Assembly (NCBI GenBank): GCA_964401215.1
Contig: CAYNXS010000002.1
Span: forward strand, 1-51,142
DNA length: 51,142 bases
Reading direction: 5' to 3'
Origin: an uncultured Methanolinea sp.
GTDB taxonomy: Archaea; Halobacteriota; Methanomicrobia; Methanomicrobiales; Methanospirillaceae
Of the stretch, positions 13,134 through 45,984 are shown piece after piece. The notes beneath the pieces are model-generated. The model ran no database searches. It was not told the DNA's origin and saw only the letters and a list, made by a program, of their open reading frames with translations. Position 1 is the stretch's first letter, and every line of letters starts with the position of its first letter. The translations under genes were made by a program, and so were the position numbers.

Positions 13134-13169
13134 CCAATCCCTCGCTGATTCGTGAGAATTCTTCTGAAA

Positions 13170-13474: not shown

Positions 13475-13477
13475 GGG

Positions 13478-17262: not shown

Positions 17263-17340
17263 GTTCGGCCCCTTTTTTTGTATGTATGGGTATTTCGGTT
17301 TGCGGGCAGTATTGCACTGTTTCAGCACGAAACCCGCTTG

Positions 17341-18656: not shown

Positions 18657-18861
18657 TCCATCACCTCCATGTAATTGACACAAGTGGGGTTATTGCAGTT
18701 ACCAATACGGCAAATGGTGTCTATATACTTTGTGTAGTGACGTCCCGACCGGAAACAGGGGATAATAAATCTAATAACCACACCACCCCTAAATGGATAG
18801 GTAAGGATTTCCTTGGCCAGGGATGACAAGATCCCCAGGCACGGCCATGAAGAGGTGTACC

Positions 18862-19503: not shown

Positions 19504-19509
19504 GTGTGG

Positions 19510-19875: not shown

Positions 19876-19881
19876 ACACCG

Positions 19882-20262: not shown

Positions 20263-20280
20263 GGTATAATCTAGATCATT

Positions 20281-20586
20281 TCAGTTGATATTATCCACGC
20301 TATATCCCTTGTTCACCAGCAGGTTCTTTACCCTCTCTTTGTGATTTCCCTGCAGCTCGATCGATGTTCCCTTCACCGTTCCGCCACATGCAAGTCTCCC
20401 TTTCATGTATTTGGAGAGGTCTTCAAGGTCGATATCCGTAGGGTTCAGGCCTTCGATCACGGTCACTTCTTTCCCGTACCGCCGCCTGTCGACCTTGACA
20501 CTGATCCGCTGTTGTTCCTTTGCGACTTCTTCGCAGATGCATAGCTCTTTCGGCAGTCCACACGTTGGACATATACCTCCGTTCAT
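20281..20586 (-). CDS. Translation initiation factor aSUI1 (eIF1 homologue)
   Basis: [20 protein letters not shown]...[13 protein letters not shown]...[15 protein letters not shown] is the SUI1 fold pattern. I prefer the ATG at 20586 because an AAATATATAA element is centred about 27 nt upstream, which would make the transcript leaderless. Confidence 0.85.
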
Positions 20587-20608
20587 CACAAGTACCTTCA
20601 AGTTCTCG

Positions 20609-20618
20609 TTATATATTT
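20609..20618 (-). promoter_or_regulatory. Putative TATA box for aSUI1
   Basis: The minus strand reads AAATATATAA, centred about 27 nt upstream of the ATG at 20586. Archaeal TATA boxes sit at about -26/-27. Confidence 0.4.
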
Positions 20619-20681
20619 GTTGGCATCATTAAAACCCGTTAAACACCGGATAGCACCTGATTTTCGGAAATTCATGAGTTC

Positions 20682-22334
20682 TCATGCATTCACGGTATCG
20701 ACCCTGCAGGTATCGCATCCCCTGGAGAGCACCTGGTCACCCCGGCTGTGGTAGCGGTAGACTGTGATCCCCTTACAGCCAAGATCCCGGGCACGTGTAA
20801 AGATACGGGAGATATCCTCCGGGGTGGCATCTTCCGGGAGGTTCACGGTCTTCGAGACGGCGTTGTCAACGTATTTCTGGAAGGTCGCCTGCATGTTCAC
20901 GTGATGGGTGGGATCGATCTCCCCTGCATTCCGGAAGAGTTCCCTGATTTCATCCGGCAATGCCAGGTGCTGAACACTCCCCGTCTTCATCATTTCTCTC
21001 ATGATCTCCCTTCCATTCGGCAGGTCCTTACAAAGGCGTTTTAATCCCGGGTGGATGATCCGGAACACCCTGCTCTCGATTCTCCTCTCTCCGGCACACG
21101 AGAAGATGGGTTCAATACCGCTGCTTGTGCAGGCTATCAGGTGCAGTGAGCCTGTCGGGGCGATGGTCGTGACCGTGGCATTCCTCATCGGTCCTGAGTA
21201 GATGCTACGGTCAATCGCCGGAAATGAACCTTTTTCTTCGCCCAGCGTGCGGGATGCATCATGGGACTCCTCCTGGATACACCGCATAATGCGTTCTCCA
21301 TACATGAGAGCTTCATCCGACTGGTAGGGAATCCCCATCTGGATAAGCGCATCTGCAAATCCCATCACACCAAGGCCAATCTTTCTTGTCTGAAGCGTCT
21401 GCGTTTTGATTCGCCGGATGGGGAATTTGTTCACATCAATCACTGCATCAAGGAATTCGACTGCCAGGTGCACAGTGTCAGAGAGTGATTCCCAGTCTAC
21501 CTCATTTACATGGATGAAGCGTGAAAGGTTGATGCTCCCCAGATTGCAGCTCTCCCAGGGGAGGAGTGGCTGTTCTCCGCATGGATTGGTGGCCTCCATC
21601 ACCCCAAGTCCCGGGACCGTGTTTTTCTCGTTGATACAATCAAGAAAGAGGGCCCCGGGATCCCCGCATTTCCACGCGGAACGTGACAGGGAATTCCAGA
21701 GATCACGGGGATCGATGTCACGGGAGACGGATCCGTCTCTGGGATTGACAAGGTCATACCGGTGTCCCTTCTCCAGGCATGAGAAGAATGCCCGGTCAAA
21801 ACCCACCGAGAGGTTGAAGTTCTGGAGTCCCCCTGCCTCTTTTGCCCGGATGAATTCGATGATATCAGGGTGGCTGCTCGCGAGCACGCCCATGTTCGCC
21901 CCCCTTCGCTTTCCTCCCTGCCTGAGGGCATTCGTGGCCTCATCAAAGACATGGATGAAAGAGAGGGGGCCGCTGGCGACTCCCGCTATGCCATTCACGA
22001 CATCGCCGCGTGGCCTGATATGTGAGAATGAGAAACCCGTTCCTCCCCCGCTCTTGTGGAGAAGTGCCGTATGTCCCAGCACCGAGAAAATCTGCCTGAT
22101 GGAGTCCTCCACGGGAAGCACAAAGCATGCAGAGAGCTGACCGGAACGGGTTCCTGCATTCATGAGGGTCGGTGAATTGGGAAGAAAACGAAGGTCACCC
22201 ATGATCTTTGAAAAACGCGATGTCTTTTTGGTCCCGACAGCGCGGGCAACCCTGCAAAACATTCCTTCAGGCGTCTCGCCCGGCAGCAGGTAGCGGCTGG
22301 CCAGGAGCATATTCGCCGGGTCACAGAGATCCAT
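20682..22334 (-). CDS. nrdJ: Adenosylcobalamin-dependent (class II) ribonucleotide reductase, short form
   Basis: 550 aa: LPNSPTLMNAGT..., the active-site region NPCGEQPLLPWESCNLGSINL, and a C-terminal Cys pair (GCDTC). Confidence 0.85.
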   Translation of the reverse strand: MDLCDPANMLLASRYLLPGETPEGMFCRVARAVGTKKTSRFSKIMGDLRFLPNSPTLMNAGTRSGQLSACFVLPVEDSIRQIFSVLGHTALLHKSGGGTGFSFSHIRPRGDVVNGIAGVASGPLSFIHVFDEATNALRQGGKRRGANMGVLASSHPDIIEFIRAKEAGGLQNFNLSVGFDRAFFSCLEKGHRYDLVNPRDGSVSRDIDPRDLWNSLSRSAWKCGDPGALFLDCINEKNTVPGLGVMEATNPCGEQPLLPWESCNLGSINLSRFIHVNEVDWESLSDTVHLAVEFLDAVIDVNKFPIRRIKTQTLQTRKIGLGVMGFADALIQMGIPYQSDEALMYGERIMRCIQEESHDASRTLGEEKGSFPAIDRSIYSGPMRNATVTTIAPTGSLHLIACTSSGIEPIFSCAGERRIESRVFRIIHPGLKRLCKDLPNGREIMREMMKTGSVQHLALPDEIRELFRNAGEIDPTHHVNMQATFQKYVDNAVSKTVNLPEDATPEDISRIFTRARDLGCKGITVYRYHSRGDQVLSRGCDTCRVDTVNA

Positions 22335-31955: not shown

Positions 31956-33152
31956 TCAGATCATGAACCTGAATATCACCCAGGCGATGATGAGCATGAT
32001 GGCAGAGTATTTCAAGCCAGCAACCACCCTCCCTTCGCCCATCTGCCCGGCGACAAGGCCCGAACAGACACCCTGGATCATCGCGGCATGTGAGAAAAGC
32101 CGGGTATAGAAGAAGAGGTCAATATTCCCGATGAAGGACGCAGCACCAGCACCCGCTGCAGATGCTGCACTGCCTGCCGTGGCCATCGTGGTGAGGAACG
32201 TGCTGACCAGGATGAAAATCACGAATACGAACACGAGGAACGATATCAGGACTATGATCACATAGATCAGCATGTTATTCGATCGTTCCGCCCGAAGCGC
32301 CAGAACCTCGTACGTGTCACGGGCCGCTGCCCGCAGAACCTCACTCACGTCTCCGCCTGCCTTACTCGCTTTTGCAATAAGGTCGATGCTCCTGTCAGAA
32401 AGCGGGGTTCCAAGGCGGGTCCTGAACCGCTGGATGGCCTCGATAAACGTGGTGTTCCATGACATCTCGTTGTCAAGGCGCCGGATATACGGGGTGAGCG
32501 TGCTGTACTCCCCCTGGGCAACGAGATGAATGGCATTCGGGAGCGTCATCCCGCTGTCGTTCATGCCGGCCAGATCACGGAAGAAGTTCGGCAGCGCTTC
32601 CTCGAGGTTCTTCATGCGCCTGTTCTCACGAAAGTCCATGAATGCGACCGGAACGATTGCAATGAGGAGGGACAAGATCAAGATGTCATCAAGAAGGGTT
32701 GTCGTGAAAAACACGCTCATCCCGTAGTCCCTTACAATGAATGCTGTTCCCAGCAGGAACACGATGATCGCGAGGGGGAGTGTGACAATCAGGATGTTAA
32801 GTGGTTTTTCAAAGAGAACCTTGAGGGGGTGCTTAAGAATCCGCTTCAATCCCGAACGCTCGCTCTTGTGCTTCTCAAGCTTTTTGCTGATCTCTACCTG
32901 TTCCCTCGAGAATTTGCCTATCTCGCCGGGACTGAGATCGACTGAATAGGGTTTTTCTCCTTTCAATATACCCCAGAATCCCGGATCTCTCGCAGTAATT
33001 GTCGGACTCTGAACCGTCCCTGAAACTTTGGAGACGGTCTGTTTTGTCACCTGCGGGGGTGCAATTCCTGTCCCTTTCCTGCCAGCCGCTTCACTCAGGC
33101 TGCCTTTTTTCGGCACTATGTTCCTGAAGGAGTCCTTGAGTCCCATGTTCAC
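31956..33152 (-). CDS. Type IV filament platform protein, half-size T2SSF domain (EpdJ/K- or TadB/C-like), second copy
   Basis: 398 aa. It has an N-terminal soluble region of about 100 aa, transmembrane segments, a cytoplasmic helical block (LPNFFRDLAGMNDSGMTLPNAIHLV...IDLIAKASKAGGDVSEVL) and C-terminal transmembrane segments. Its start overlaps the upstream stop. Confidence 0.7.
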   Translation of the reverse strand: MNMGLKDSFRNIVPKKGSLSEAAGRKGTGIAPPQVTKQTVSKVSGTVQSPTITARDPGFWGILKGEKPYSVDLSPGEIGKFSREQVEISKKLEKHKSERSGLKRILKHPLKVLFEKPLNILIVTLPLAIIVFLLGTAFIVRDYGMSVFFTTTLLDDILILSLLIAIVPVAFMDFRENRRMKNLEEALPNFFRDLAGMNDSGMTLPNAIHLVAQGEYSTLTPYIRRLDNEMSWNTTFIEAIQRFRTRLGTPLSDRSIDLIAKASKAGGDVSEVLRAAARDTYEVLALRAERSNNMLIYVIIVLISFLVFVFVIFILVSTFLTTMATAGSAASAAGAGAASFIGNIDLFFYTRLFSHAAMIQGVCSGLVAGQMGEGRVVAGLKYSAIMLIIAWVIFRFMI

Positions 33153-34072
33153 GTCTCCGGAGTCATCGAGCTGATGAGAATCACGAACATGAGACTTCCA
33201 AAGGGAATGATCATGTAAATGATGACATACAGCATCATTGGCTGCGTTGACTGGCTCAGGATGGTCATGATAGATTGCAGGATGATCAGGAAGAGCGGCC
33301 CTGCAACCATTGCGGTTACATAGGATTCGGATATCAGGCCGAGAGTATCAAGGAATAGTTTCTGGCTCTGCCTGTTCTCGAGGGAATACTGTTCTGCTTT
33401 GGTTCTGAAATAATCCGTAAGGCTGCTTCCTGCTGATATACATCCCATTGCACCCTGCAGGAATTCCTTCATGCGAAGACTCGGGGTCGTTGCAGAGATC
33501 AGCCGGAGTGCGTCGATCAGGTCCCTTCCGAAGAGATCGATCTCCATGGAAACGAACCGCGCCTCGACAGCGCTCTCTCCATACATGGGACTGCTCCCGA
33601 GCTGCCTGAAGATCTCTGCAGGTGGGATTCCTGCAGTGGACATGGCGGTGATGTAGTTGATGGCGTAGGGCAGGGTTGCGTCGATATTCCTGCGCCGGTT
33701 CCCTGCAATCATACTGGGATAGATGAGAAATATCAGGAAGGTTATTCCTCCGACTACCGCAAGCGAGATAACCACCGCAAGGATTGTGCCGATTATCAGG
33801 CTGTATTGGGAGATGACCAGCATGAAATCGGGAACAGCTCCCTGGTACTTGATCATTGAGGGTATATTGAGAAGATACGTCACAATGCCGAGGAGGACTG
33901 CTGCCACAAGACCTGCGATGACCGATGAAAGATATGCGGTGGAGAGATATACCTCGAAGGGAACTTTCATCCGGGCAGTTACAAGATCATTGCGGAGTTG
34001 GGAGTAGGCATCCCTCTTCTTCTCTGCATACGACCCCAGTAACTTGAATGCAACCCGTTCGAACCCGTTCAT
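33149..34072 (-). CDS. Type IV filament platform protein, half-size T2SSF domain, first copy
   Basis: 307 aa. Transmembrane segments flank LPYAINYITAMSTAGIPPAEIFRQLG...LIDALRLISATTPSLRMKEFLQGAM, a T2SSF-type helical bundle. There is an ATGA overlap with the ATPase gene. Confidence 0.7.
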   Translation of the reverse strand: MNGFERVAFKLLGSYAEKKRDAYSQLRNDLVTARMKVPFEVYLSTAYLSSVIAGLVAAVLLGIVTYLLNIPSMIKYQGAVPDFMLVISQYSLIIGTILAVVISLAVVGGITFLIFLIYPSMIAGNRRRNIDATLPYAINYITAMSTAGIPPAEIFRQLGSSPMYGESAVEARFVSMEIDLFGRDLIDALRLISATTPSLRMKEFLQGAMGCISAGSSLTDYFRTKAEQYSLENRQSQKLFLDTLGLISESYVTAMVAGPLFLIILQSIMTILSQSTQPMMLYVIIYMIIPFGSLMFVILISSMTPET

Positions 34073-36345
34073 GATTCTCCGTACAGTTCAGCCCTGATCT
34101 TCTCCATGAGGTTTACAGGGTCACGATAGTACTGGACAAGGATATTACCGACGTCACGGAAATGCCGGACCTTCTTGATTCTCATCCATTCAAGCACTTC
34201 CTGGCGCCGTTTGAGTTCTTCTTTCATCCGTTCCTCGTCCCACCCTCTGGACTCCATGATCTCCTCAAGAACGTATGATTTCCCTGAATAGGTGATCTCA
34301 TCGGTTGCCGGGTGCCACCTGAAGACCTCGTTCGTGATCAGTTCGTTTGTTCGGGGATCTATATCGAGGATCTCGATGATCTGCTTGTTTCTCCTGATAC
34401 GCTGACCTCCGACACGGGCCTGAACCTGGACCGATACCAGGTCAAGCGCGGAGAGCATGTTTCTTGGCACATTCAACGGGGGATTCTCCAGGCGGTGAAC
34501 GATACTTGCCACCGAATCAGCGTGGATAGTGGAGTAGGTGACGTGGCCGGTACTCATAGCCTGGAACAGTGTGAGGGCTTCCTTGCCGCGGACTTCTCCT
34601 ACAAGGATATACTCCGGGCGCTGCCTCAATGCAGCCCTGAGAAGCTCGTACATATCGATCTCCCCTTTTCCATTGGTGTCAAAAGATGTCCTGGTGATGC
34701 TCGGGATCCAGTTAGGGTGAGGGAGCTTGAGTTCACGGGTATCTTCAAGGGTTACAATCTTCGCAAGGGGAGGCATAAAAAGCGAGATGGCATTGAGCGA
34801 AGTGGTCTTCCCGGATGCAGTTCCTCCTGCAAACAGGCATGATTTCCCGCTTTCCACCGCCATCCAGAAGAATGCGATTGAGAGGGGTGAGAAGGTATGC
34901 CATTCTATCAGGTCTGTCGGGGTAATTGGTTCATCCTTGAATTTCCTGATAGTATAGGTTGAACCATGTGCAGTCACTTCGGTCCCGAGGGTCATCTGGA
35001 TACGTGACCCATCGCTCATCGTGGCATCGAGCATGGGTTCGGCGATGGAGATGTACTTCCCGGCCCTCTGCGCAAGCTTGGTGACAAAGGAATCCAGTTC
35101 TTCTGAACTCCTGTACATCAGGTTCGTACGCATCGATTCGTAGCGGTTGTGGTAGACAAAGAGATTGGCATTGACCCCGTCGCACGAGATATCCTCGATA
35201 AACCGGTCATGCATGAGCGGGTCGATCATACCGTTTCCAAGGAACTCCTTGTACATGGCATAGAGGATCTTTTCCCTCTGGAGGGGGCTTAGGGAGAGGC
35301 CGTAATCGTCAATGATATCATCAGTTACATCGCGGAGGGTCTTTTTTGCAACTTCCTCGAGAACGTTCTGGGTATTGATATCAAGACGTTCGAAGATACG
35401 CTCCTTGATGTCCTTGAAGAGGTCGTTTTCTGCAGGGGTGAGCTTAGGTTCCAGAACTTCATACAGGTATTCATGCGTGGCATTGTCATAGGTGATCCGG
35501 ACATAGGCATACGGTTCGTTGACCGGGTAGATCTCGGTCTGCTCCACCCCTGGCCGTGGCCTGAAGGTTAGATCTACGAGAGCCCCATGCGTTCGTGAAT
35601 TGTATTCGATGGGTACTTTGCGGATTACATTGATAGGGTTGAGCTTTGCAAGGATTCCACCTTTCCCTGCCTCGGCATGGACCTCGGATGCTGCATCTGA
35701 GACCGTCTTGATTCCGGCATCTGAAATATCTGATTTAAAAAGGTCTTTTCCATCGATTGCATCATTTCCTCCCTTGATGGTGAAAATATTGCTCCGGTCC
35801 TGGATTTTGATCTCTTCAACCTGGAAGGTAGCGCCCTTGGGAAGGATGAGCCCGGAGAGATCGTTGATCTGGTCGACCGAGATGACCGTTTCTTCAAGGA
35901 CAGGTTTTTCTGCCGACCAGATGGTCTTTTTTGCAGGCTCGAATTTTGGAGGAGTATGGGCAGGGATTGGTGCTTTCTTTTCAGGGGGGGAATATTTTGA
36001 AGGCCGGGACGTGGGTGTTATCTCCTTCTCGCGCCCGCTCTCTCGTGCAGGTGTATCGGTATCGCTTCCTTGAGGGATGCTGCTCTTGCCCGGCTCCCTT
36101 GTCTGGGAACCGGGTGGAAACACAGGAAAAACATCCGGCTTCTCCTTCTCTTCTGGAGAGAGCCCAAGTCGTTTCATGAAGCCGTCAAGGTCGTCTTCTG
36201 CTACGGGGGGAACCGATACACCTTTCTTTTCCTCTCTTGTTGTCACACCAGGTGTTTCAGGAAGGCTTTTCGTCTTCCTCCTTGAGAACAGGTTCTTGAT
36301 TGAAATCCCTTGTTTATCATCTGCAGTCATGCCCGCACCCCACAT
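34069..36345 (-). CDS. Type II/IV secretion-family assembly ATPase (FlaI/PilB/TadA-like) with a long low-complexity N-terminal extension
   Basis: The C-terminal ~500 aa carry Walker A (FAGGTASGKTTSLNA), Walker B/Asp box (PEYILVGEVRG) and a His box (TYSTIHADS). The N-terminal ~240 aa are rich in Pro, Lys, Glu and Ser. The ATG at 36330 is an alternative start. Confidence 0.85.
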   Translation of the reverse strand: MWGAGMTADDKQGISIKNLFSRRKTKSLPETPGVTTREEKKGVSVPPVAEDDLDGFMKRLGLSPEEKEKPDVFPVFPPGSQTREPGKSSIPQGSDTDTPARESGREKEITPTSRPSKYSPPEKKAPIPAHTPPKFEPAKKTIWSAEKPVLEETVISVDQINDLSGLILPKGATFQVEEIKIQDRSNIFTIKGGNDAIDGKDLFKSDISDAGIKTVSDAASEVHAEAGKGGILAKLNPINVIRKVPIEYNSRTHGALVDLTFRPRPGVEQTEIYPVNEPYAYVRITYDNATHEYLYEVLEPKLTPAENDLFKDIKERIFERLDINTQNVLEEVAKKTLRDVTDDIIDDYGLSLSPLQREKILYAMYKEFLGNGMIDPLMHDRFIEDISCDGVNANLFVYHNRYESMRTNLMYRSSEELDSFVTKLAQRAGKYISIAEPMLDATMSDGSRIQMTLGTEVTAHGSTYTIRKFKDEPITPTDLIEWHTFSPLSIAFFWMAVESGKSCLFAGGTASGKTTSLNAISLFMPPLAKIVTLEDTRELKLPHPNWIPSITRTSFDTNGKGEIDMYELLRAALRQRPEYILVGEVRGKEALTLFQAMSTGHVTYSTIHADSVASIVHRLENPPLNVPRNMLSALDLVSVQVQARVGGQRIRRNKQIIEILDIDPRTNELITNEVFRWHPATDEITYSGKSYVLEEIMESRGWDEERMKEELKRRQEVLEWMRIKKVRHFRDVGNILVQYYRDPVNLMEKIRAELYGES

Positions 36346-36391
36346 CCTGCCGGGAAAGGCCTCATCCTCCGCCTTTCATGCCCGGCCTTAC

Positions 36392-37090
36392 CTAGCCCCT
36401 TCCTTCCAATTCAATCTGGATATTATGAATGGCCAGCCTTATAAGCCCAAGGTTTACGTCCCTGTTGGTGAGCAGGCAGAGGTAGAGGTCCCCATATGGT
36501 GCTATGATACACTTTCTCTCGTCACTCTCAAGAATAATCTGGTCGAGCACCCCCATTCGCAGATTCTCAGCCATCTTCTTACCCGCCCTGAGGAAATCCT
36601 CGGCCATGGCAGCAACCTGCTCGAAATCCCCCTCACCAATTGACTGTACCGGAAACCCTTCGAAGAAGACTGAAACCGCGATAACCCCCCGCTGGTTGAA
36701 AAGGCGATGTAACAGAGCATCATCAAGCCCGTTCTTCGTAGGGGGTTGGGAACCTACGTCCTTCTCCAGCATGCACAGCCCTTCCTTCCGGCATATCTTT
36801 TTTGCCTCTGCAATCTGCTCCGGGGTGTACTTGTACTGGACATACTGAAGATTGAGGTCTTTGTCCCCGGCACTGCGCATAAGGTGTGCGATTACTTCCT
36901 TCCCCTTGAAATCACTGGTCTGGTTCCTGAAATGTGCAGCAATAACCCGTCCTTTGTCAATAATCAGGATTCCAGAACCATTCCCCGTGAGCACCTCCAC
37001 TCTCCCGGAAAAAGGGTGGGTGCCATCGGGATGCTCCTCCTGCAGGGGTACCGCTGAGATCCCTGCGTATGTGCCTTCAGGAAGACTCAT
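36392..37090 (-). CDS. Two-domain protein: N-terminal small module (PATAN/DUF4388-like?) plus C-terminal Roadblock/LC7 domain
   Basis: 232 aa. The C-terminal half, GVIAVSVFFEGFPVQSIGEGDFEQVAAMAEDFLRAGKKMAENLRMGVLDQIILESDERKCIIAPYGDLYLCLLT, follows the Roadblock/LC7 pattern. The N-terminal half, FSGRVEVLTGNGSGILIIDKGRVIAAHF...GKEVIAHL, recurs in two neighbouring proteins. Confidence 0.6.
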   Translation of the reverse strand: MSLPEGTYAGISAVPLQEEHPDGTHPFSGRVEVLTGNGSGILIIDKGRVIAAHFRNQTSDFKGKEVIAHLMRSAGDKDLNLQYVQYKYTPEQIAEAKKICRKEGLCMLEKDVGSQPPTKNGLDDALLHRLFNQRGVIAVSVFFEGFPVQSIGEGDFEQVAAMAEDFLRAGKKMAENLRMGVLDQIILESDERKCIIAPYGDLYLCLLTNRDVNLGLIRLAIHNIQIELEGRG

Positions 37091-37093
37091 ACC

Positions 37094-37441
37094 TTATAAT
37101 GCTGCGATGAGGCGTTCTTTATTTTTCTTTAACTCGTAGCGGACACGTCCTACGTTCGCTTCGTTGCTTGCCACCACTGCAATCAGTTCATCCGCTGAAA
37201 GGGGGGACATGATAATCGGGCCGTGATCAAGCTCAACAAGCATCTGGTGGAGCTCCCCCTTGCCGAGTTCTTTCCCCATGGCTTCAGAAGTACCCATACC
37301 GGTTGATGCCATCGCACCAAGGGCATCGATATCCATTTTTCCTGACACTGCACTCTCGATCACAAATCCGTCGCGACCAACAACTACTGCAGCATTCACA
37401 CCATCAATCTTCAAGAATTCTCCTAAAATTTGTTTCAGCAT
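37094..37441 (-). CDS. Roadblock/LC7 (MglB-like) domain protein
   Basis: 115 aa: FLKIDGVNAAVVVGRDGFVIESA...DALGAMAS...LHQMLVELDHGPIIMSPLSADELIAVVASNEANVGRV is a textbook Roadblock/LC7 pattern. An AGGTGG Shine-Dalgarno sequence lies 5 nt upstream of the ATG at 37441. Confidence 0.8.
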   Translation of the reverse strand: MLKQILGEFLKIDGVNAAVVVGRDGFVIESAVSGKMDIDALGAMASTGMGTSEAMGKELGKGELHQMLVELDHGPIIMSPLSADELIAVVASNEANVGRVRYELKKNKERLIAAL

Positions 37442-37456
37442 TCATGCCACCTACAC

Positions 37457-37494
37457 TTATAAAGCATCTTTCTTGATATATAAAAATAAAAATG
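37457..37494. promoter_or_regulatory. AT-rich divergent promoter region with TATA-like elements
   Basis: TTATAAA (37457-37463) and GATATATAAAAATAAAAATG (37475-37494) lie in the 164-nt gap between the divergent operons that start at 37441 (minus) and 37606 (plus). Confidence 0.4.
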
Positions 37495-37605
37495 TTTGCT
37501 CTATCGATACGCAGGATCCTTGGGATTATTCGCTGCCCAATGGAATGAAATTATGGCTCAACGTTACCAATACAATTATGAATAGAGGAGTAGTGATCTT
37601 TAATA

Positions 37606-38346
37606 ATGCAACTTCCCCGTGGCACGTTTCATTCCATGAAAAAAGGCATGAAAATTGCTCTCATCGTAAATAGCCTCAAGGAAGAAGGTTTTACCGGCTC
37701 CTGTTCGATTGCCTGCGGGGACCATGCAATCGATCTTGTTGTGAAAGAGGGAAATATTCTGCTCGCCAGTTGTGACGCTTCCTGTGGAAATAATGCCATG
37801 GAAATAATAGGAACACTGTATGAGCAGGCTGCGGACGCATCCCTGGCTGACCTGACGCAGGCACAGATGAAACTCACCCTTGAATTCAATGAACAATGCA
37901 GGGTCAGCCAGAGACGGGAGACTCCTCCAAAGGCCAAGATCCCTTCTGGTGAAGAGATGAAAAGCGTCCTGATCGATAATTCTCAGAATGCCACACCAGC
38001 GAATCGCGAAAGAGAGAGAGAAAAGATCATAAAACCCGTATCCCGACCCATTGAGCAGAGACCACTGATACAGAAAATTCCACCTGCTCCACTTCAACAT
38101 ACTCCCCCTCAACCTGAACCTTCCCGACAATCCCTAACAACTCCATCCCCAACTCCATTCACCACGAAGAACAGCCCAGTTGACATATTCGCCCGTGAAG
38201 GAGAAGATGTGACCATGGTGGACAGGGATCTCAATGCCCTTGATTCGATGGACCTCAATACCATGAGCAATAAGATCCGTGAAAACTGTAAGATCATGGT
38301 TGAAAAATTGCACCTGGAACATCTTATGGAACAACAGAAGGATTGA
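37606..38346 (+). CDS. Hypothetical protein: N-terminal small module (PATAN/DUF4388-like?) plus a Pro-rich linker and a short C-terminal helix
   Basis: 246 aa. FTGSCSIACGDHAIDLVVKEGNILLASCDASCGNNAMEIIGTL aligns by eye with the N-terminal half of the 36392..37090 protein. The middle region is low-complexity (PPAPLQHTPPQPEPSRQSLTTPSPTPF). The start is uncertain (37606, 37636 or 37648). Confidence 0.5.
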   Translation: MQLPRGTFHSMKKGMKIALIVNSLKEEGFTGSCSIACGDHAIDLVVKEGNILLASCDASCGNNAMEIIGTLYEQAADASLADLTQAQMKLTLEFNEQCRVSQRRETPPKAKIPSGEEMKSVLIDNSQNATPANREREREKIIKPVSRPIEQRPLIQKIPPAPLQHTPPQPEPSRQSLTTPSPTPFTTKNSPVDIFAREGEDVTMVDRDLNALDSMDLNTMSNKIRENCKIMVEKLHLEHLMEQQKD

Positions 38347-38358
38347 AGGGATTTTATC

Positions 38359-38967
38359 ATGGAAATCATAAGCTACGACACTTTCCTGCTGCTGGTACTG
38401 CTCATCCTTGTCGGGATTGTTTTGTTCCTCTCGCTTGTGATTGCGATATACGTAATCCGGCTCTCACGGAGGATAACAGACCTGGAGAAGAAGGATGCCC
38501 GGGCTGTTAAACCGGCCGTACCCCGGTCGGTTGCGAAGAGCAAGGCAGATGTCGCAGTACCACGCCCGGAAACAACCGCATTTACACAGGAAGTCACTCA
38601 GAAAGTCCAGACTCCTCCAAAGACTGAAGTAAAGAAAAAATTCGATGTGAACACCGACGCGCCTGATATCCCCACAGGAATAAAAAACCTGTGTACCCTG
38701 TACGGCCTCGATTCTCTCACCGTCTCGTCACCCGATGGACTTGTCATAGCATCATCGGGACATCCCTCAGCAGTCACGGAGGCGGCCCAATTCAGTTATG
38801 CCTTCCAGACGGGAGCACCAATTACTGATGAAGGCGTTTTTGTATTCCCTGTCGATTATCATGCGAGTCCACTTGTGGGCATCCTTCGCAGTCAGGGGAC
38901 AATACAGGATTCCTTGCTTGAAGCAATGAAAAAAGATCTCGAATTAATTCTTGAAAAATGGATTTGA
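38359..38967 (+). CDS. Membrane-anchored protein with a C-terminal Roadblock/LC7-like domain
   Basis: 202 aa. It has an N-terminal transmembrane segment (FLLLVLLILVGIVLFLSLVIAIYVI), a charged linker, then LYGLDSLTVSSPDGLVIASSGHPSAVTEAAQFSYAF...FVFPVDYHASPLVGILRS, which resembles the Roadblock pattern. Confidence 0.5.
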   Translation: MEIISYDTFLLLVLLILVGIVLFLSLVIAIYVIRLSRRITDLEKKDARAVKPAVPRSVAKSKADVAVPRPETTAFTQEVTQKVQTPPKTEVKKKFDVNTDAPDIPTGIKNLCTLYGLDSLTVSSPDGLVIASSGHPSAVTEAAQFSYAFQTGAPITDEGVFVFPVDYHASPLVGILRSQGTIQDSLLEAMKKDLELILEKWI

Positions 38968-39036
38968 TGATGTGCCATGTATTGTTCATTAACCTTAAAT
39001 AAGCACGCAGTCAAACAAAACTCAATGGAGGGTTGA

Positions 39037-39822
39037 ATGGTCAGGGTATTTACCGTTGCATCCGGAAAAGGGGGGACCGGAAAAACCACAACAACAGTCA
39101 ATCTCGGCACGAGTCTGGCCCAGTTCGGGAAGAACACCATTATCATGGATGCCGATATCGGGATGGCAAACCTTGGATTGGCCCTTGGACTCGAGGATGC
39201 ACCGATAACACTCCATGAGGTTCTTGCCGGTAAAGCCAATATCCACGAAGCTATCTACGATGGCCCGGCAGATGTAAAGGTTGTCCCAAGCGGGATATCA
39301 CTCCAGGGATTTCAGCAGGCAAATCCGGAACGACTCAAGGACGTCCTGAAAGAACTCGTGGAGGAATGTGATTTCCTCATCATCGATGCCCCCGCAGGTA
39401 TCAGCCGTGACGGTGTAATACCACTCGCTGTGGCTGATGATGTGATCCTGGTGGTCAACCCTGAGCTCTCTTCTATCGTTGATGCATTAAAGACCAAGAT
39501 ACTCACGGAAGTCGTCGGGGGACACGTGCTCGGTGTCATTATCAACCGCGTGGGTACTGAAAAGACAGAGGTCGTGAAGCAAAAGATGGAGAAAGTGCTC
39601 GGGGTTCAGGTGATAGGAACGATTCCTGAAGACCCGAATGTCAGGAAGGCTGCCTCCTTCAAGACACCTGTCGTAATCAAGTATCCTTTATCCCCTGCAT
39701 CGGTGGCCATCAAGAACCTGGCAGCGGAACTCGCAGGAATCCCGATAGAACAACGAGGGGCAGAGACCCAGGATAAATTCATCGAGAGATTTGCAAAAGT
39801 ACTGTTCAGGGGGAAAAAATGA
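39037..39822 (+). CDS. minD: MinD/ParA-family ATPase with a C-terminal amphipathic helix
   Basis: It has the deviant Walker A motif ASGKGGTGKTTTT, then IIMDADIGMANL and LIIDAPAG. The C-terminal DKFIERFAKVLFRGKK looks like a membrane-targeting amphipathic helix. A GGAGGG Shine-Dalgarno sequence lies 4 nt upstream. Confidence 0.85.
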   Translation: MVRVFTVASGKGGTGKTTTTVNLGTSLAQFGKNTIIMDADIGMANLGLALGLEDAPITLHEVLAGKANIHEAIYDGPADVKVVPSGISLQGFQQANPERLKDVLKELVEECDFLIIDAPAGISRDGVIPLAVADDVILVVNPELSSIVDALKTKILTEVVGGHVLGVIINRVGTEKTEVVKQKMEKVLGVQVIGTIPEDPNVRKAASFKTPVVIKYPLSPASVAIKNLAAELAGIPIEQRGAETQDKFIERFAKVLFRGKK

Positions 39823-40016
39823 CGCTGGAGATGATCCTGCTCATCGTCAGCAGCCTGGTTATTCTGTTCCTCCTTATTCTTGTCGTCTTTATGTATATCA
39901 GGATTCGACAGCTGGTAAGGGATTTCGAACTGCTCGAATCACAGATTATGGTCACAGATTCAGAATTTGACGCCCTGATGCAGAATGTTGATGAGATAGG
40001 ACATCTCAAGATCTGA
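39819..40016 (+). CDS. Small single-pass membrane protein, translationally coupled to minD
   Basis: 65 aa: MTLEMILLIVSSLVILFLLILVVFMYIRIRQ followed by an acidic helix. There is an ATGA overlap with the minD stop. Confidence 0.5.
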   Translation: MTLEMILLIVSSLVILFLLILVVFMYIRIRQLVRDFELLESQIMVTDSEFDALMQNVDEIGHLKI

Positions 40017-40043
40017 TGCACCAGCGAGAATCCGCCCTCTCTC

Positions 40044-40048
40044 TTTTT
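40044..40048 (+). terminator. Short oligo-T tract after the minD operon
   Basis: The sequence ctcTTTTTcatc lies 28 nt after the stop at 40016, in a convergent intergenic region. This is weak evidence. Confidence 0.25.
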
Positions 40049-40216
40049 CATCATCCCTGGAGCCAAGAACCGATTCCCGTATGTTTGAGCAAAGGGTATG
40101 AAAAAAATTATGAAAAAGGTTGCACCTTATGATTCATCTGAAAATTGTTGGAAACTCTCCATCCCATTTGCCAGTGTTAAGTGGAGTAGCGAGATATGAA
40201 GAGTGAATTTTAGGAT

Positions 40217-41776
40217 TCACTCTGCCCTGTTTTTAATCTGGAACACGCAGTGCTCGTCTCCCTTTGACCTGCACTTAACCTCCCTGGCCTGGACTTTTAT
40301 TCCGAATGCACCTTCAACAATGCCGGCGAGAAGCCCGGCAGTGCAGTAACAGACGTTTTTCCCGATATTCCCGAAGGACTCGGACTCAACGGTATGGGAG
40401 AGGGTAATCGTCTTTGTCTTGGTGGCCTCGTCCCACTCCTCCTTGACTAAGTTGAACCAGCCCATCTGGGAATAGAAGGCAAACGCCATGTCGCAGATTG
40501 TCTTGGGATTGATCTTTCGCAGTTTCTCTTCCATTAACGGGCCGTAGACAATCTCTTCAGGAATTCCGACAAAAAGGATACCTATGATCTCATCTGCGGA
40601 ATTCCTGATTGGCTCATACGCCACGACCATCTTTTTCCCAACCACATCTGCAGTGCCATAATAGGTCTGCCCTTTGTTGATCACGGCATCGTAGACAATA
40701 CTTGAAATCTCAGTTCCAACAGCCCGCTTGCCGTCAGCCCCAACAACGTTGGTAGATACACGGATAGCCTTATCACCGACTTTCTGGAAGACGGTAGCCT
40801 TGCTGCCCAAGTCCTTTTCAATGGAATCGACAACCTCAAAGTTATTGTTGACGATATGGCTGCCAAACGCAATCTGGCCTCCGGAAACTGAAGGAGCCCC
40901 GTGTGCTGCGAAACGGCTGTGCAGCTGGTTGAGATCCGCGTCAAGCTTGGTCCTGGAGAGGTCATATGAGATACTCATTTTCTTGTAGTGTTCCACATTC
41001 TCCTTTCCCATGTCCATGTAGGCACGGTAGTTGACCCCGCTTGCCGGCGCCTCTCCCATGGTCTTCTTCAACGAATTGGTCATGGACGTGAAGATGAACC
41101 GGGGCATCATGACAACCGGTTCATCCATGAGGGAGATCTTGCCCTCCAGGGGCTTATGTTCAATGAATTCGGTGATGGCCGAATCGCCCTTGACCACCGC
41201 TTCGGCCTTGAATTTCCAGCTCGCGGGAACCTGATCTGCCTGGAACGTACAGTATTCATCACCCTTCGCATGGCAGGTCTTCTCAAGGCAAAACCAATTT
41301 TTCCCGGTAATCGCCATCAGGATTCCTTCGATCCATCCCTGGTGAATCCCACAGACGGGCATCTTCCAATCCTTGAGGATCTCAGATTCAAACGTCTTCT
41401 TGCACCTGAGCACTATCCGCTTGTCACTGGCTTCAACGAGCTCGAAGGGAGCTCCCCACCCCTGCTGGTGCTGGAGCTTGAAGACAAGCATCAGGAATTC
41501 CTCGGGTTTCAGGTTCATTCCGAGTTTCTTCAAAAGGTTGTTGAGACCGACGGAGCCCTTGCCCACAGAACGGAAAATCTTGCGCATGGCCTTATTGGCA
41601 AGTTTCTTATCCAGGTTGGCTTCGTACATCTCATACAGAGCTTTTATGAGATAATTCGGGTTACTTGCAGTCCTTACTCCAAAACAGGTGGTGACTCCTT
41701 CAGCAGGGTTCATCTGCATATAGGCAGAAATATCCTTGCTCCCATTGAGGATGGCCTCAAAATCTTGTTTATCCAT
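40217..41776 (-). CDS. Cytoplasmic sensor-like protein: V4R-type domain, Cache-like domain, V4R-type domain, with no output domain
   Basis: I trimmed the start to the ATG at 41776 (MDKQDFEAIL), which has a GAGGAG Shine-Dalgarno sequence upstream. There are two V4R-like ends: VCGIHQGWIEGILMAITG...EKTCHAKGDEYCTFQ and CYCTAGLLAGIVEGAFG...EVKCRSKGDEHCVFQI. The central block ATVFQKVGDKAIRVSTNVVGADGKRAVGTEI...TYYGTADVVGKKMVVAYEPIRNSADEIIGILFVGI matches the Cache_3/Cache_2-type pattern. I see no transmembrane segment. Confidence 0.65.
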   Translation of the reverse strand: MDKQDFEAILNGSKDISAYMQMNPAEGVTTCFGVRTASNPNYLIKALYEMYEANLDKKLANKAMRKIFRSVGKGSVGLNNLLKKLGMNLKPEEFLMLVFKLQHQQGWGAPFELVEASDKRIVLRCKKTFESEILKDWKMPVCGIHQGWIEGILMAITGKNWFCLEKTCHAKGDEYCTFQADQVPASWKFKAEAVVKGDSAITEFIEHKPLEGKISLMDEPVVMMPRFIFTSMTNSLKKTMGEAPASGVNYRAYMDMGKENVEHYKKMSISYDLSRTKLDADLNQLHSRFAAHGAPSVSGGQIAFGSHIVNNNFEVVDSIEKDLGSKATVFQKVGDKAIRVSTNVVGADGKRAVGTEISSIVYDAVINKGQTYYGTADVVGKKMVVAYEPIRNSADEIIGILFVGIPEEIVYGPLMEEKLRKINPKTICDMAFAFYSQMGWFNLVKEEWDEATKTKTITLSHTVESESFGNIGKNVCYCTAGLLAGIVEGAFGIKVQAREVKCRSKGDEHCVFQIKNRAE

Positions 41777-41880
41777 TGTTTCAGACTCCTCAAACCAGAT
41801 ATCTGCTGTGCACTCAAATAAAATTGGTGTATGCTGGCCACCCCATCCCCATGTCGGGGATATCATGGGGAGCAGGAAAA

Positions 41881-42504
41881 TCAGGAAATATCCAGGGTCA
41901 CAATCTGGTTGAGAAGCCCTGCATGAAACTCGAACTCGTATACCCGCGTGGAGAGGTCTTTTTCATGGACCACACACTCATACTTCCCAAAAAGCAGCCT
42001 GAATGATACTTTCCCCTCTGAACTTGTAGTATCGCTGCCTATGACCTGGCCAGCTCTCCTGATCGAGATTCGGCGACCCTGCACTGGGTTGCCCCCCATG
42101 ATCAGCTTCATGGCAAAGATGCCGGCTCCGGTCTCGCCAACCTTCTTCATCTCAGGAATGTCGCATGCTTTTCCCCTGTTGAAAAGGTTCCTGTCAAAGA
42201 CACGACATCCCAGCGTGATGCGCTCGATAAGGGGAGGATCCTCGGGGTAGAACATGAACTGCTCATTCCCTTTCAGGAGGTAGATGGCCTTGTTCCCAAA
42301 CAGGCATCCCTTGTCATCGTAAAGGATTGCGCCATCAGGTTCCCCTTCATAAAAGAGGATGTACCACTCCTGACGCTTTTCCGCAGATTTTCCAATGCCA
42401 CAAAGAGCGTTGTTTTTTGCCTTTTCAAGAAGCGCCTGCAGGGAATAAGGTCCCTCCCCGGATGAACCTTCAAGGACCGATTCCAGAACCTCCCTGCTGG
42501 TCAT
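41881..42504 (-). CDS. Hypothetical protein: N-terminal small module (weak PATAN/DUF4388-like?) plus a C-terminal beta-sandwich-like region
   Basis: 207 aa. CGIGKSAEKRQEWYILFYEGEPDGAILYDDKGCLFGNKAIYLL loosely matches the module seen in two neighbouring proteins. The C-terminal GNPVQGRRISIRRAGQVIGSDTTSSEGKVSFRLLFGKYECVV resembles CarboxypepD_reg/PEGA-type strands. Confidence 0.45.
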   Translation of the reverse strand: MTSREVLESVLEGSSGEGPYSLQALLEKAKNNALCGIGKSAEKRQEWYILFYEGEPDGAILYDDKGCLFGNKAIYLLKGNEQFMFYPEDPPLIERITLGCRVFDRNLFNRGKACDIPEMKKVGETGAGIFAMKLIMGGNPVQGRRISIRRAGQVIGSDTTSSEGKVSFRLLFGKYECVVHEKDLSTRVYEFEFHAGLLNQIVTLDIS

Positions 42505-42650
42505 AGTGTATCAAACCCAGTCGATCTCATCTGCCACTGCCATGATTCAACCATGGGCGGATTTATCAGCGAGCGTATCCGGGACATTGTATCTTACTCG
42601 CGAAATGGAGAGAATTTCCAGATGCCGCTCCATGGCGCGGCGGTGGGACC

Positions 42651-43481
42651 ATGCATAAGAACCTGCACGACTCATATGTACCTGTATCCATGATAATCCC
42701 TCTGGCCATAGGTGCGGCAGCCGTGTTATGTACTTTTTGTTACGCGTCTTACCGCGACCTGAAAGAGAGGAGAGTTCCCTTTGCCACATGGTATCCAATG
42801 CTGGCAGTCGCAATCCCAATGGCGTTCTGGTTCTATATGGGTGTATGGACCCGGAACGGATGGGAGACCGTTGCATATTTTCTCATCCTCACCATCATCT
42901 TCTCAGCCGTATTCTACCTTTTCGCATGGGTCAACCTTTTCGGGGGGGCAGATGCATGGGCTCTCATATTCCTTTCCGCATCAGTCCCTGCGTTCCCACT
43001 CGAACCTCTCACAGGATATCCTCCACTTGGGTTCTTTCCATTCACTGTTCTTGTGAATGCGCTTATCCTGAACCTTTTCACTCCTCTTTTTCTTTTCATG
43101 AGGAATCTCTTCAAAGGCCACCGGGCCCCATTTCCGTATATGTTCCTGGGTTTCCCCCTGCCCTCGGACTCATTGCCAAAAGCCTATGGATTCATCATGG
43201 AAGAGATTGAAGAAGAGGCGGACGGCTCACTGAAAAGGCGTTTTATACGCCCAGGGGAAGCATTGCAGAAGATGGTATCCGGGAAGAAGAGGGTCTATAC
43301 GAAGGAACTGCGCCTCCACCCGGAGAAATATACCCATGAAATGGCCCTGTATTCGAAGGCGGGGCACGTCTGGATCTCCTACGGGATACCATTCATTGTT
43401 CCCCTCACGGCAGGGATGATTTCTGCTCTCTTCTTCGGAGATATCCTCTTCTTTGCGATGAAAATCCTGGCTGGTGTCTAG
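42651..43481 (+). CDS. Archaeal type IV prepilin/preflagellin peptidase (A24 family, FlaK/PibD/EppA-like)
   Basis: 276 aa and polytopic. The first catalytic Asp context is [13 protein letters not shown] and the second is [10 protein letters not shown] soluble insert ([15 protein letters not shown]...) precedes the last transmembrane segment, as in FlaK-type enzymes. The 3' end overlaps hisI by 8 nt. Confidence 0.75.
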
Positions 43482-44037: not shown

Positions 44038-45984
44038 GTGGCAAAAATACGCCCGATACCCGCCAGAATCCACAAAATAGAACCAAAAAAACAGGTGAGG
44101 CTTTTGAAAGTAGTACCGGATACAAGTGTCGTAATAGACGGTCGCATCACCTCCATGATACAAACTGGAGAATATAAGGGTGCATCAATAATAATCCCGG
44201 AAGCAGTGGTCGCAGAACTCGAAGCACAGGCAAATCAGGGACGGGAAATAGGATTTTCGGGGCTGACCGAGCTTCAGGCGTTATGCAAACTTGCAGAGGA
44301 AGGCACTATTGAGCTCAAGTTCGTGGGCGTGCGTCCAAGCCTTGAACAGGTAAAGCTCGCCAGCGGCGGAGAGATCGATGCCCTTATTCGAAATGCTGCG
44401 ATCGAGAACAATGCAAAGTTCATCACAAGCGACGTGGTCCAGGCCGAGGTTGCCAAAGCCAAGGGGCTCGATGTGATTTACTTAAAGCCCCAGGTCGAGG
44501 GGTTCACTCCTCTTGGTATCGACCAGTTCTTCGATGAGCATACCATCGCCGTCTATCTCAAGGATAGAGTGTCCCCGATGGCCAAGAAGGGGACGGTCAA
44601 AGAGATGCGCCTTCTGAAAATTAGGGATCAGGTCAGCACTGACTACGAGTTGAGAAACCTTGCCCAGGAGATCCTGGAGAGGGCAAAACGCGATCCTGAC
44701 GGCTTCATCGAGCTTGAGAAGAGGGGAGTGACAGTCGTCCAGATCGGATCCATGAGGATCGCCATCACACGAAGGCCATTTTCAGATGGGATGGAGATCA
44801 CTGCAGTCCGCCCGATTGCTGATGTGAGCCTTGAACAGTTCAACAAAGCAAATATCATCAAGACAAGAATTGTCGGGGATAAGTGTGGCCTCCTGATTGC
44901 AGGCCCACCGGGCGGAGGTAAGACTACCCTTGCCCAGAGCATTGCTACCTATCTCGCGGACCATGGATACGTAGTCAAGACGATGGAGGCCCCACGCGAG
45001 CTTCAGGTCCCGGATCACATTACCCAGTATACCTCGCTTGACGGTAGCATGGAGAACACTGCGGATGTTCTCATGCTGGTAAGACCCGATTTTGTCATAT
45101 TCGATGAACTTCGGAAGAACGAGGATTTCCGGGTCTTTGCCGACATGCGCCTCGCTGGAATTGGGATGATAGGGGTCATCCATGCAATCGGTGCACACGA
45201 TGCCCTTCAACGCTTCTCGGACAGGGTTGATTTCGGTGTTCTCCCTCAGATCATCAATACTATCATTTTCGTCGATAAGGGAGAAATTACCAACATCTAC
45301 GATGTCGGTTTCACCATCAAGGTACCCGAAGGGATGTCCTCAGAAATCAACCTCCGGCCCGTGACCACGGTCTCCGATTATGAGACCGGCGATCTGGTCT
45401 TTGAGATCTTCAAATACGATGGCGAGACCATCGTGATGCCCGTCATGAATCCTATCGCAGCACCTGCACCCCTGAAATCCCCGGCAATGCCAAAAGAGGA
45501 GGAGAATACACAATGGAAGATCCTCGAGAAAGAGATCCAGAGGGAGATCGGACGGTATACCGACGGGTACGTGGATGTTCACATGCTCTCTGACTCAAAA
45601 GCAGTGGTCTATATAGAGGACAAGGATGTTCCGGCAGCCATCGGCAAGGGAGGTAAGAATATCGCTGCAATAGTGAACAAGGTGGGAATTGGTATCGACA
45701 TCAGGCCCAGGACCGAGCTTGAAAAGGCACCAGCACCTCCCACTCAGGAAGAAGAACTGCAGCTCGGCGGCGGGGTGAAGATACGCATGGACAAGAAGCA
45801 GCTGGCCATTATCTGCCCTGAGCAGGGCGGGAAGATCGTGGATGTCTTCTCGGGAAAGGAATACCTGTTCACCGCGACGGTCAACGACTCCGGGGAGATC
45901 CACCTTGCCAAGAATTCAACGATTGCACTCGAGCTCATCAAGCGATACAACGAGGGCGACATCATAAAACTGAGGCCGGTATAA
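44038..45984 (+). CDS. PIN-domain / P-loop ATPase / KH-domain protein (often labelled 'PilT-family ATPase' in archaea)
   Basis: The N-terminus is PIN-like ([14 protein letters not shown]...[12 protein letters not shown]), Walker A is [15 protein letters not shown], and the C-terminus is KH-like ([18 protein letters not shown]). The start is uncertain. The TTG at 44104 (MKVVPDTS), with GGTGAGG upstream, is a good alternative to the listed GTG at 44038. Confidence 0.75.

Follow-up and report, generated by a model that had tools for sequence, protein, structure and literature searches.

A PilB3/afGspE-like type IV filament core and a conserved set of candidate control genes around it in an uncultured Methanolinea sp.

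The described systems closest to the locus treated here belong to clade 2 of the archaeal type IV pilus (T4P) machines of Makarova, Koonin and Albers (2016; PMC4858521), which corresponds to "system 2" in the 2026 preprint of Sivabalasarma and Albers. Characterised members of this clade, namely PilB3 of Haloferax and pil1 of Halobacterium, produce adhesion pili. The PilB3 loci of both genera are devoid of pilins, PilA pilins being used in trans, while a pair of tadC genes is common in clade 2 loci; the expected partners of the clade include a FleN/MinD ATPase, and MinD (arCOG00589) and Roadblock (arCOG02603) genes had already been noted near archaeal T4P loci (PMC4858521). According to the 2026 survey, the platform of system 2 is encoded by one gene, and the ATPases of archaella are minimal ones, without extra N-terminal domains. 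The locus compared with these systems below consists of twelve open reading frames (ORFs) at positions 31956-43481 of a 51-kb stretch of DNA from an uncultured Methanolinea sp. (contig CAYNXS010000002.1; 51,142 nucleotides, the whole of which is referred to as the window).

The core of this locus is of a known kind, and the conserved set of control genes around it is so far undescribed. We consider it probable that the whole is a Methanoregulaceae version of the clade 2 / system 2 motor with a signal-gated, MinD-assisted control layer, its pilins being encoded elsewhere. In the literature searched, no description was found of PATAN-like adaptors, a Roadblock trio, a minD-coupled transmembrane (TM) protein and a V4R-Cache sensor as one module, and literature searches on DUF2226, arCOG02603 and DUF4388 in archaea yielded nothing on the module beyond one sentence in Makarova et al. 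(2016). A first-pass annotation, made from the DNA letters alone, had not recognised the parts as one described archaeal machine; this stands for the accessory control module as a unit but not for the core, which fits the clade 2 kind and for which neighbouring MinD and Roadblock genes were reported in 2016. Its coordinates, gene inventory and operon layout are borne out, the twelve ORFs sitting exactly where it had placed them, and its T2SSE, T2SSF, MinD, V4R, Cache and A24 assignments and two of the Roadblock ones were upheld by profile-HMM searches, the third Roadblock assignment by predicted structure. The general idea of a sensor-linked, MinD-associated assembly ATPase also holds.

The assembly ATPase (758 aa; 34069..36345, minus strand) matches T2SSE (PF00437, E 5e-35) and has the Walker A motif GGTASGKTT. 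Among twelve relatives in the Protein Data Bank (PDB), Archaeoglobus afGspE (2OAP) scores 432 bits, Sulfolobus FlaI 298 and Caulobacter CpaF/TadA 161. FlaI is also the top NCBIfam model (NF058587, 412 bits, under the cutoff of 550), and homologues are annotated publicly as 'flagellar protein FlaI'. Pfam matches to PilB3_C (25.3 bits) and PilB3_N (18.2 bits) are weak and both below the cutoffs of 27; they recur among homologues of the ATPase, one close homologue attaining 29.2 bits for PilB3_C. An N-terminal extension of about 265 aa, partly conserved, lies ahead of the region aligning to afGspE and FlaI, and its segment 150-245 is conserved within Methanomicrobiales. Because of the afGspE ranking, the PilB3_N and PilB3_C matches and the long extension, the core fits the euryarchaeal clade 2 / system 2 (PilB3- and afGspE-like) type. 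In these respects it resembles the systems of Haloferax volcanii PilB3-PilC3, Halobacterium pil1 and Archaeoglobus afGspE, and with the clade at large it shares a locus without pilins, a MinD partner and the two tadC genes found in many members (PMC4858521). The literature searched does not describe for the Haloferax and Halobacterium loci what is encoded here in addition, namely a trio each of PATAN-like and Roadblock proteins, the small TM protein coupled to minD and the V4R-Cache sensor.

The platform is encoded in two pieces, a 307-aa N-terminal half (33149..34072, minus strand; T2SSF at residues 138-265, E 6e-11) and a 398-aa, TadC/PilC/FlaJ-like C-terminal half (31956..33152, minus strand; T2SSF at residues 190-316, E 1e-16; four TM-like segments). 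On the 555 positions of the ArlJ/FlaJ model, they cover 28-249 and 273-541, respectively. By tblastn, the 398-aa half was found in 65 of the 80 related loci used for family alignments, most of the remainder stopping at a contig edge. The platform is also split in Methanohalophilus (307 + 327 aa), whereas it is a single gene of 692 aa in the Halorutilales archaeon Cl-col2-1, so that the fission may be independent of that in Epd and Tad. Such a split had been taken in the first-pass annotation as the hallmark of EpdJ/EpdK and TadB/TadC, and the core as Epd/Tad-like. A divided platform also occurs outside Epd and Tad, two tadC genes being present in many clade 2 loci (PMC4858521), and with afGspE ranking above FlaI and FlaI above CpaF, sequence similarity lends the Epd/Tad label no support. 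The Methanomicrobia members examined contradict the single-platform-gene rule of the 2026 survey for system 2: the platform is split here, in Methanohalophilus and probably in other Methanomicrobia.

Likenesses to Epd of Methanococcus maripaludis and to bacterial Tad (type IVc) nevertheless exist, namely two half-size platform genes with one T2SSF domain each and a MinD/ParA ATPase in the role of TadZ; the minD-ATPase-platform-platform order of Methanohalophilus even mirrors tadZ-tadA-tadB-tadC. Unlike in Epd and Tad, the ATPase is much nearer to afGspE and FlaI than to CpaF/TadA, neither short Flp/Epd-type or minor pilins nor a secretin are present in the locus, and the Halorutilales relative has an unsplit platform. 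The order of the halves differs as well: here the first platform gene encodes the N-terminal half, whereas in the mapping of Denise et al. this half corresponds to TadC and the C-terminal one to TadB (PMC6668835).

An A24 prepilin/preflagellin-type peptidase (276 aa; 42651..43481, plus strand), divergently transcribed, completes the core. It matches Peptidase_A24 and Arc_PepC_II, both catalytic Asp contexts are visible (one being GGAD), and it scores 60 bits against the FlaK model (cutoff 330). The peptidase gene is adjacent to the core in 34 of 36 loci, this denominator, used for all gene counts below, being the Methanomicrobiales genomes, one per species, in which the sequence extends 8 kb or more upstream. 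It shares an 8-nt overlap (43474-43481) with hisI, encoding phosphoribosyl-AMP cyclohydrolase; the two genes adjoin in 32/36 related loci, an odd yet conserved pairing of a membrane peptidase with histidine biosynthesis.

Regarding the control genes, three Roadblock-fold proteins are encoded. The stand-alone Roadblock/LC7 protein (115 aa; 37094..37441, minus strand; Robl_LC7 E 3e-16) is found with 70-90% identity in 22/36 loci and matches the MglB NCBIfam model weakly (22 bits, cutoff 200). The second is a fusion of a small N-terminal module (N-module, treated below) with a Roadblock domain (232 aa; 36392..37090, minus strand; Robl_LC7 at residues 123-207, E 1e-8), present in 23 loci; wherever checked, its gene immediately precedes, on the same strand, either that of the ATPase or that of the 207-aa homologue located before the ATPase. 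In a Methanomicrobiales metagenome-assembled genome (MAG; L040, 4109-6133, plus strand), the fusion protein reaches 674 aa instead of about 232, with a big insertion between the two domains. The third, a single-pass membrane protein of 202 aa (38359..38967, plus strand; 14 loci), had been called a membrane-anchored Roadblock-like protein. An hhalign comparison was negative, and the resulting non-Roadblock assignment was overturned by AlphaFold2 (AF2) and Foldseek: the model has a TM helix (6-47), a disordered stretch (50-85) and a cytoplasmic domain (97-201) with a predicted local distance difference test score (pLDDT) above 90, for which the top Foldseek matches in the PDB are almost all Roadblock, MglB or LAMTOR. 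Its 90 homologues are all unnamed proteins, the named sources being Methanoregulaceae or Methanomicrobiales.

As in the Myxococcus MglA/MglB/MglC system, several Roadblock-fold proteins go with a type IV pilus machine, and Foldseek matches include MglB. Unlike in that system, one Roadblock protein is membrane-anchored, the MglB score is far below its cutoff, and no MglA-type GTPase is present in the window, in agreement with the earlier remark that none accompanies the Roadblock domains. The sole small GTPase of the window is OapA-like and is encoded 18 kb away, in an oapABC operon (18823-20262, plus strand) consisting of the OapA-like GTPase (MMR_HSR1), OapB (PF09846, E 1e-44) and OapC (PF09845, E 3e-28). 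Oap standing for origin-associated proteins, the chromosomal replication origin may lie close to this operon.

The archaeal MinD ATPase (261 aa; 39037..39822, plus strand; 20 loci) scores 334 bits against TIGR01969 (cutoff 202) and has the deviant Walker A motif SGKGGTGKT as well as an amphipathic C-terminal tail, FIERFAKVLFRGKK, which would target the membrane. In loci of Methanocellales, Methanosarcinales and Halorutilales, its gene immediately precedes that of the ATPase. A 65-aa protein with one TM segment and a coiled coil (39819..40016, plus strand) is coupled to minD, as previously described, the ORF coordinates giving an overlap of 4 nt. Small TM ORFs with the same 4-nt minD overlap are found in L002, L003, L004, L006, L007, L045 and the Halorutilales locus (L077), so that the minD-coupled small TM protein is conserved from Methanoregulaceae to Halorutilales.

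The candidate sensor is encoded by a 549-aa ORF (40217..41866, minus strand) with V4R at both ends and sCache_3_3 as its middle domain (Cache_3-Cache_2 E 2e-35, V4R E 4e-25, N-terminal V4R E 2e-10, internal V4R repeat); it is a cytoplasmic V4R-sCache_3-V4R protein without output domain. Since the domain matches agree and inspection of the sequence revealed no convincing TM segment, its earlier description as a TM-less V4R-Cache-V4R sensor is retained. The gene is present in 15/36 loci, where it follows the 207-aa gene, and stand-alone REC-PAS genes come after it in Methanoregula loci. The first 30 codons (MISPTWGWGG...) look non-native, and the true start may be the ATG at 41776 (MDKQDF...). 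Many tblastn-derived V4R-Cache ORFs of Methanoregula have only about 370 aa, their ends being set by an automatic ATG-first rule.

Mutual homology connects the N-modules (about 105-115 residues) that the 232-, 246- and 207-aa proteins have in common (hhalign probabilities 94, 93.5 and 73%), as the earlier notion of a small module common to three proteins implied. When members were scanned singly, DUF4388 was the top recurrent Pfam family, with matches in 11 of 28 (best E 0.0019); among 59 distant relatives retrieved by an exhaustive profile search, 12 matched it (best E 2e-5). DUF2226 is matched by five of the 28 (best E 1e-4), and no family besides DUF4388 recurs in more than five. The shared module is consistent with a remote PATAN/DUF4388-like domain at sub-threshold similarity, and it is therefore labeled "PATAN-like" rather than PATAN, so that the mutual homology part of the earlier claim stands and the DUF4388/PATAN identity remains remote. 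Each module has its own continuation. In the 246-aa protein (37606..38346, plus strand; 18 loci), it is followed by a Pro-rich linker and a C-terminal helix, and the family alignment shows that the module and the C-terminal motif are conserved and the linker is variable. In the 207-aa protein (41881..42504, minus strand), the beta-sandwich-like region of the earlier description is confirmed by a confident AF2 model (residues 127-205, pLDDT about 90) whose Foldseek matches are transthyretin, CnaB and carboxypeptidase-D regulatory-like folds. The 246-, 202-, 207- and 65-aa proteins have no curated family match in Pfam or NCBIfam profile searches.

The 207-aa protein, for which a single-sequence search returned just 15 close relatives, is found in 34/36 Methanomicrobiales loci and is the most constant partner of the ATPase. 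In Methanospirillum lacunae Ki8-1 (L052), its N-module and beta-sandwich are fused to REC-PAS, and this fusion argues that the two together serve as the output element of a signalling path linked to pilus genes. PatA-type regulators of Synechocystis (PixE) have a PATAN domain that binds PilB1 and the cytoplasmic N-terminus of PilC; it is their output domain and suffices for signal output (bioRxiv 10.1101/2021.06.11.447907). A genomic association of PATAN with Roadblock was described by Makarova (2006), as cited in PMC4316618. As in the cyanobacterial regulators, a small N-terminal module is encoded here beside a PilB-type ATPase and a platform, and a receiver fusion exists in Methanospirillum. 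Unlike in them, the similarity is remote and sub-threshold, the order is REC-PAS-module and not PATAN-REC, the partners are Roadblock, a beta-sandwich or a Pro-rich linker, and binding is a prediction as far as archaea are concerned.

The ATPase and platform genes are present across Methanomicrobiales, Methanocellales, Methanosarcinales, Thermoplasmata and a Halorutilales genome. Metagenome bins of the Methanoregulaceae / Methanolinea type contain the closest ATPases, at 90-99% identity; across Methanomicrobiales the identity is 57-91% (57-81% in one-genome-per-species data), and elsewhere about 50-56% in Methanocellales and Methanosarcinales, about 49-55% in Thermoplasmata and 52% in the Halorutilales genome. 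Synteny of the accessory genes with the ATPase and platform genes extends to relatives: the complete accessory set is syntenic in 12/36 genomes, and in three further ones tblastn missed just the TM-Roadblock gene. Rearranged versions are also found. In L009 and L040, an N-module protein, MinD, a 207-aa homologue and the ATPase are encoded in that order in the former and all on one strand in both, while L032, L035 and L048 have no MinD nearby, and their ATPase gene is directly preceded by the genes of the Roadblock pair and of the 207-aa homologue. Methanohalophilus (L062) has a minimal operon of minD, ATPase and two platform genes, flanked by housekeeping genes, in which minD stops 16 nt ahead of the ATPase start. 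In the Halorutilales locus (6850-14312), a protoglobin, MinD, a 69-aa TM protein, a divergent N-module protein, the ATPase, the 692-aa platform protein and a KaiC-like DUF7125 protein are encoded; the control logic is the same, but the sensor is another one and the platform is undivided.

Pilin genes were not seen within 10 kb in most Methanomicrobiales loci. That no ORF of at least 60 aa in the locus has a class III signal peptide had been noted before; this holds and extends to the whole window, where two motif-based scans over all start codons, one of ORFs of at least 30 aa and the other of at least 25 aa, gave no credible case. The absence is not distinctive, the lack of a pilin in the locus being normal for the clade because PilB3 loci use PilA in trans (PMC4858521), and relatives carry Pilin_N genes beside the core. 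In M. lacunae, whose ATPase is 73% identical to that of the window, the platform genes have three Pilin_N genes at a distance of no more than about 5 kb. These pilin genes are part of a same-strand cluster (13415-21443, minus strand), apparently one operon, comprising the three pilins, a putative surface protein with DUF4114, the REC-PAS-(N-module + beta-sandwich) response regulator and a CHASE4-HAMP-PAS histidine kinase; the cluster lies downstream of the platform genes on the opposite strand and is convergent with the ATPase/platform operon. In Thermoplasmata loci, Pilin_N and class III-like genes, some very large, are located beside the core.

On the favored reading, that of a clade 2 / system 2 motor under signal-gated control, the core would consist of a hexameric-type assembly ATPase, a platform split by gene fission with translationally coupled halves, and an active-looking A24 peptidase, the pilins being encoded elsewhere in the genome. 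Around it, a cytoplasmic control layer probably sets when and where pili are built. By analogy with the binding of Synechocystis PATAN to PilB1 and PilC, the three PATAN-like modules may dock on the ATPase, probably on its lineage-specific N-terminal extension, for which segment 150-245 is the candidate site, and/or on the platform. Each module carries its own partner, the Roadblock domain in the 232-aa protein, the Pro-rich linker and conserved C-terminal helix in the 246-aa one, and the transthyretin-like beta-sandwich in the 207-aa one. The 207-aa protein, predicted to be co-transcribed with the V4R-Cache-V4R small-molecule sensor and fused or adjacent to REC-PAS two-component elements in relatives, would receive a signal supplied by that sensor or, in relatives, by REC-PAS or protoglobin. 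The three Roadblock-fold proteins, one of them membrane-anchored, are probably dimeric scaffolds tethering or switching the adaptors at the membrane. Because the Roadblock pair stays with the ATPase operon where MinD is absent, we think that these proteins act on the ATPase complex and not on MinD. Finally, MinD and the small TM protein coupled to it would license assembly or set its position, like TadZ, which has the corresponding role in Tad systems (PMC6668835), or FlhG. Gene content, folds and families, synteny, fusions and the presence of pilins beside the core in relatives are observations, whereas we infer every physical interaction and the direction of regulation.

Several results weigh against this reading. 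In many Methanomicrobiales, e.g., Methanoculleus, the core and the 207-aa protein are retained but no Roadblock, MinD or V4R genes are close by, and because of such loci these parts are either dispensable or encoded elsewhere in many members of the order. The N-module of the window scores only 12.4 bits against DUF4388 (PF14332, E 0.17, cutoff 25), the Pfam gathering score is attained by no member of the N-module family, and its profile retrieves only noise from PDB sequences (KP4 toxin, E 0.99) and no PATAN structure. The AF2 model of the N-module of the 207-aa protein is of moderate confidence and was not identified by Foldseek, matches being dominated by the beta-sandwich. With respect to the candidate docking site, ATPase segment 150-245 and the 207-aa protein are both present in 41 loci, the segment alone in 5, the protein alone in 1 and neither in 14, and these loci are not phylogenetically independent. 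The absence of any credible class III signal peptide from the window also counts on this side.

One alternative is that two unrelated systems lie side by side, the pilus core and an independent module of MinD, Roadblock, PATAN-like and V4R proteins for polarity, division or signalling, kept as neighbors by vertical inheritance. The housekeeping context is indeed stable in many relatives, the locus being bordered by HisRS and TopoVI at one end and by hisI and a PINA-like ATPase at the other. Moreover, the core, 207-aa and peptidase genes persist in nine Methanomicrobiales genomes with no MinD, Roadblock or V4R within 10 kb, and archaeal MinD serves other cargoes, namely the archaellum, chemosensory arrays and cell shape (PMC11588486). 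We regard this alternative as unlikely, however, since the linkage outlasts several independent rearrangements and holds across classes, with MinD directly before the ATPase in Methanocellales, Methanosarcinales and Halorutilales, the Roadblock pair just ahead of the ATPase operon on the same strand, an N-module protein between MinD and the ATPase in Halorutilales, and an N-module response regulator in a same-strand cluster with pilins in Methanospirillum.

It could also be argued that the machine makes no adhesive pilus and has a non-filament or short-pseudopilus role, being a ligand-gated device, e.g., for bindosome-like display of substrate-binding proteins with class III signal peptides, for protein secretion or for DNA uptake. 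The missing pilins in the window and in the 10 kb around most Methanomicrobiales loci would fit such a role, as would the second NCBIfam match of the ATPase, the bindosome ATPase BasE (208 bits), and control by a V4R-Cache small-molecule sensor would suit a nutrient-linked function; moreover, binding proteins with class III signal peptides are proposed in the 2026 survey to functionalise archaeal type IV filament (TFF) machines (10.64898/2026.04.22.720090). The BasE score is, however, far under its cutoff of 1000 and lower than those for FlaI and afGspE, genes for Pilin_N pilins and for large, adhesin-like class III proteins flank related cores, and the characterised clade members, Haloferax PilB3 and Halobacterium pil1, make adhesion pili, all of which renders a non-adhesive role improbable. 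A reduced or alternative archaellum motor, as the FlaI top match, the matches of both platform halves to ArlJ/FlaJ models, the public naming of homologues and an archaellin-family gene next to the platform genes of one locus (L059) might suggest, is scarcely credible, and was rejected. The FlaI score does not reach the curated cutoff, the ATPase has a 265-aa N-terminal extension that the minimal archaellum ATPases of the 2026 survey lack, and no archaellin-like class III N-termini were found in the window by the two motif scans. Neither in the window, where part of the ORFs were searched against family libraries and the ORF list suggests mainly housekeeping genes, nor in L059, a Methanoregula MAG, were FlaF, FlaG, FlaH or FlaC/D/E found. 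L059 is the single locus among 80 with archaellin-family genes, of which it has two. One of these, an Arch_flagellin-family gene (13973-14542, plus strand; E 6.5e-41), comes directly after the second platform gene; the other (3300-3932, minus strand) is 6 kb upstream, with no other archaellum genes nearby. The product of the former may be a filament subunit of the motor, or its position a coincidence.

Beyond the preferred reading of a signal-gated clade 2 motor, a broader idea can be put forward tentatively, although we would sooner doubt it than rely on it: the PATAN-like module might be an ancient T4P motor docking domain common to Bacteria and Archaea, coupling swappable sensors (V4R-Cache, REC-PAS, protoglobin) to a PilB-type ATPase, with associated Roadblock dimers switching a PilB- or MinD-type ATPase directly, without a small GTPase. 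If so, this direct Roadblock-NTPase pairing would, to our knowledge, be undescribed.

The genes are closely packed. In the minus-strand operon (37441->31956), gaps of 3 nt (37094/37090) and 46 nt (36392/36345) separate the Roadblock, fusion and ATPase genes, and 4-nt overlaps (34072/34069 and 33152/33149) join the ATPase and the two platform genes. The plus-strand operon (37606->40016) ends in the 4-nt overlap of minD and the 65-aa ORF (39822/39819), and 14 nt separate the 207- and 549-aa genes (41881/41866). Between the two divergent operons, an AT-rich intergenic region of 164 nt (37442..37605), which includes TTGATATATAAAAATAAAAATG, would be the promoter region. Horizontal transfer of the locus was considered in view of its G+C content of 0.47-0.51, against 0.50-0.58 elsewhere, but was rejected since the locus has the same housekeeping neighbors in seven related genomes. 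A PIN-ATPase-KH protein (44038-45984, plus strand; NCBIfam PRK13764 836 bits, PINA-like 348 bits) is encoded 0.6 kb from the pilus locus and carries a second, unrelated T2SSE-type ATPase domain; its gene is syntenic with those of the A24 peptidase and hisI in most Methanomicrobiales loci. Farther away, at least three neighboring genes (14700-18683, minus strand) have N-termini that, judged by eye only, are CBS-domain-like.

Very little is known about how archaeal type IV pili are regulated, and even in the 2026 survey the role of extra ATPase domains as interfaces for accessory proteins is no more than a hypothesis. In this respect, the locus offers a concrete, conserved candidate control system made up of three paralogous adaptors, a Roadblock trio, MinD with a small membrane partner, and swappable sensors, in which the Methanospirillum fusion and the correlation between the ATPase segment and the 207-aa protein point to specific, testable interactions. 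If the PATAN link is true, a motor-docking principle known from cyanobacteria would also operate in methanogens.

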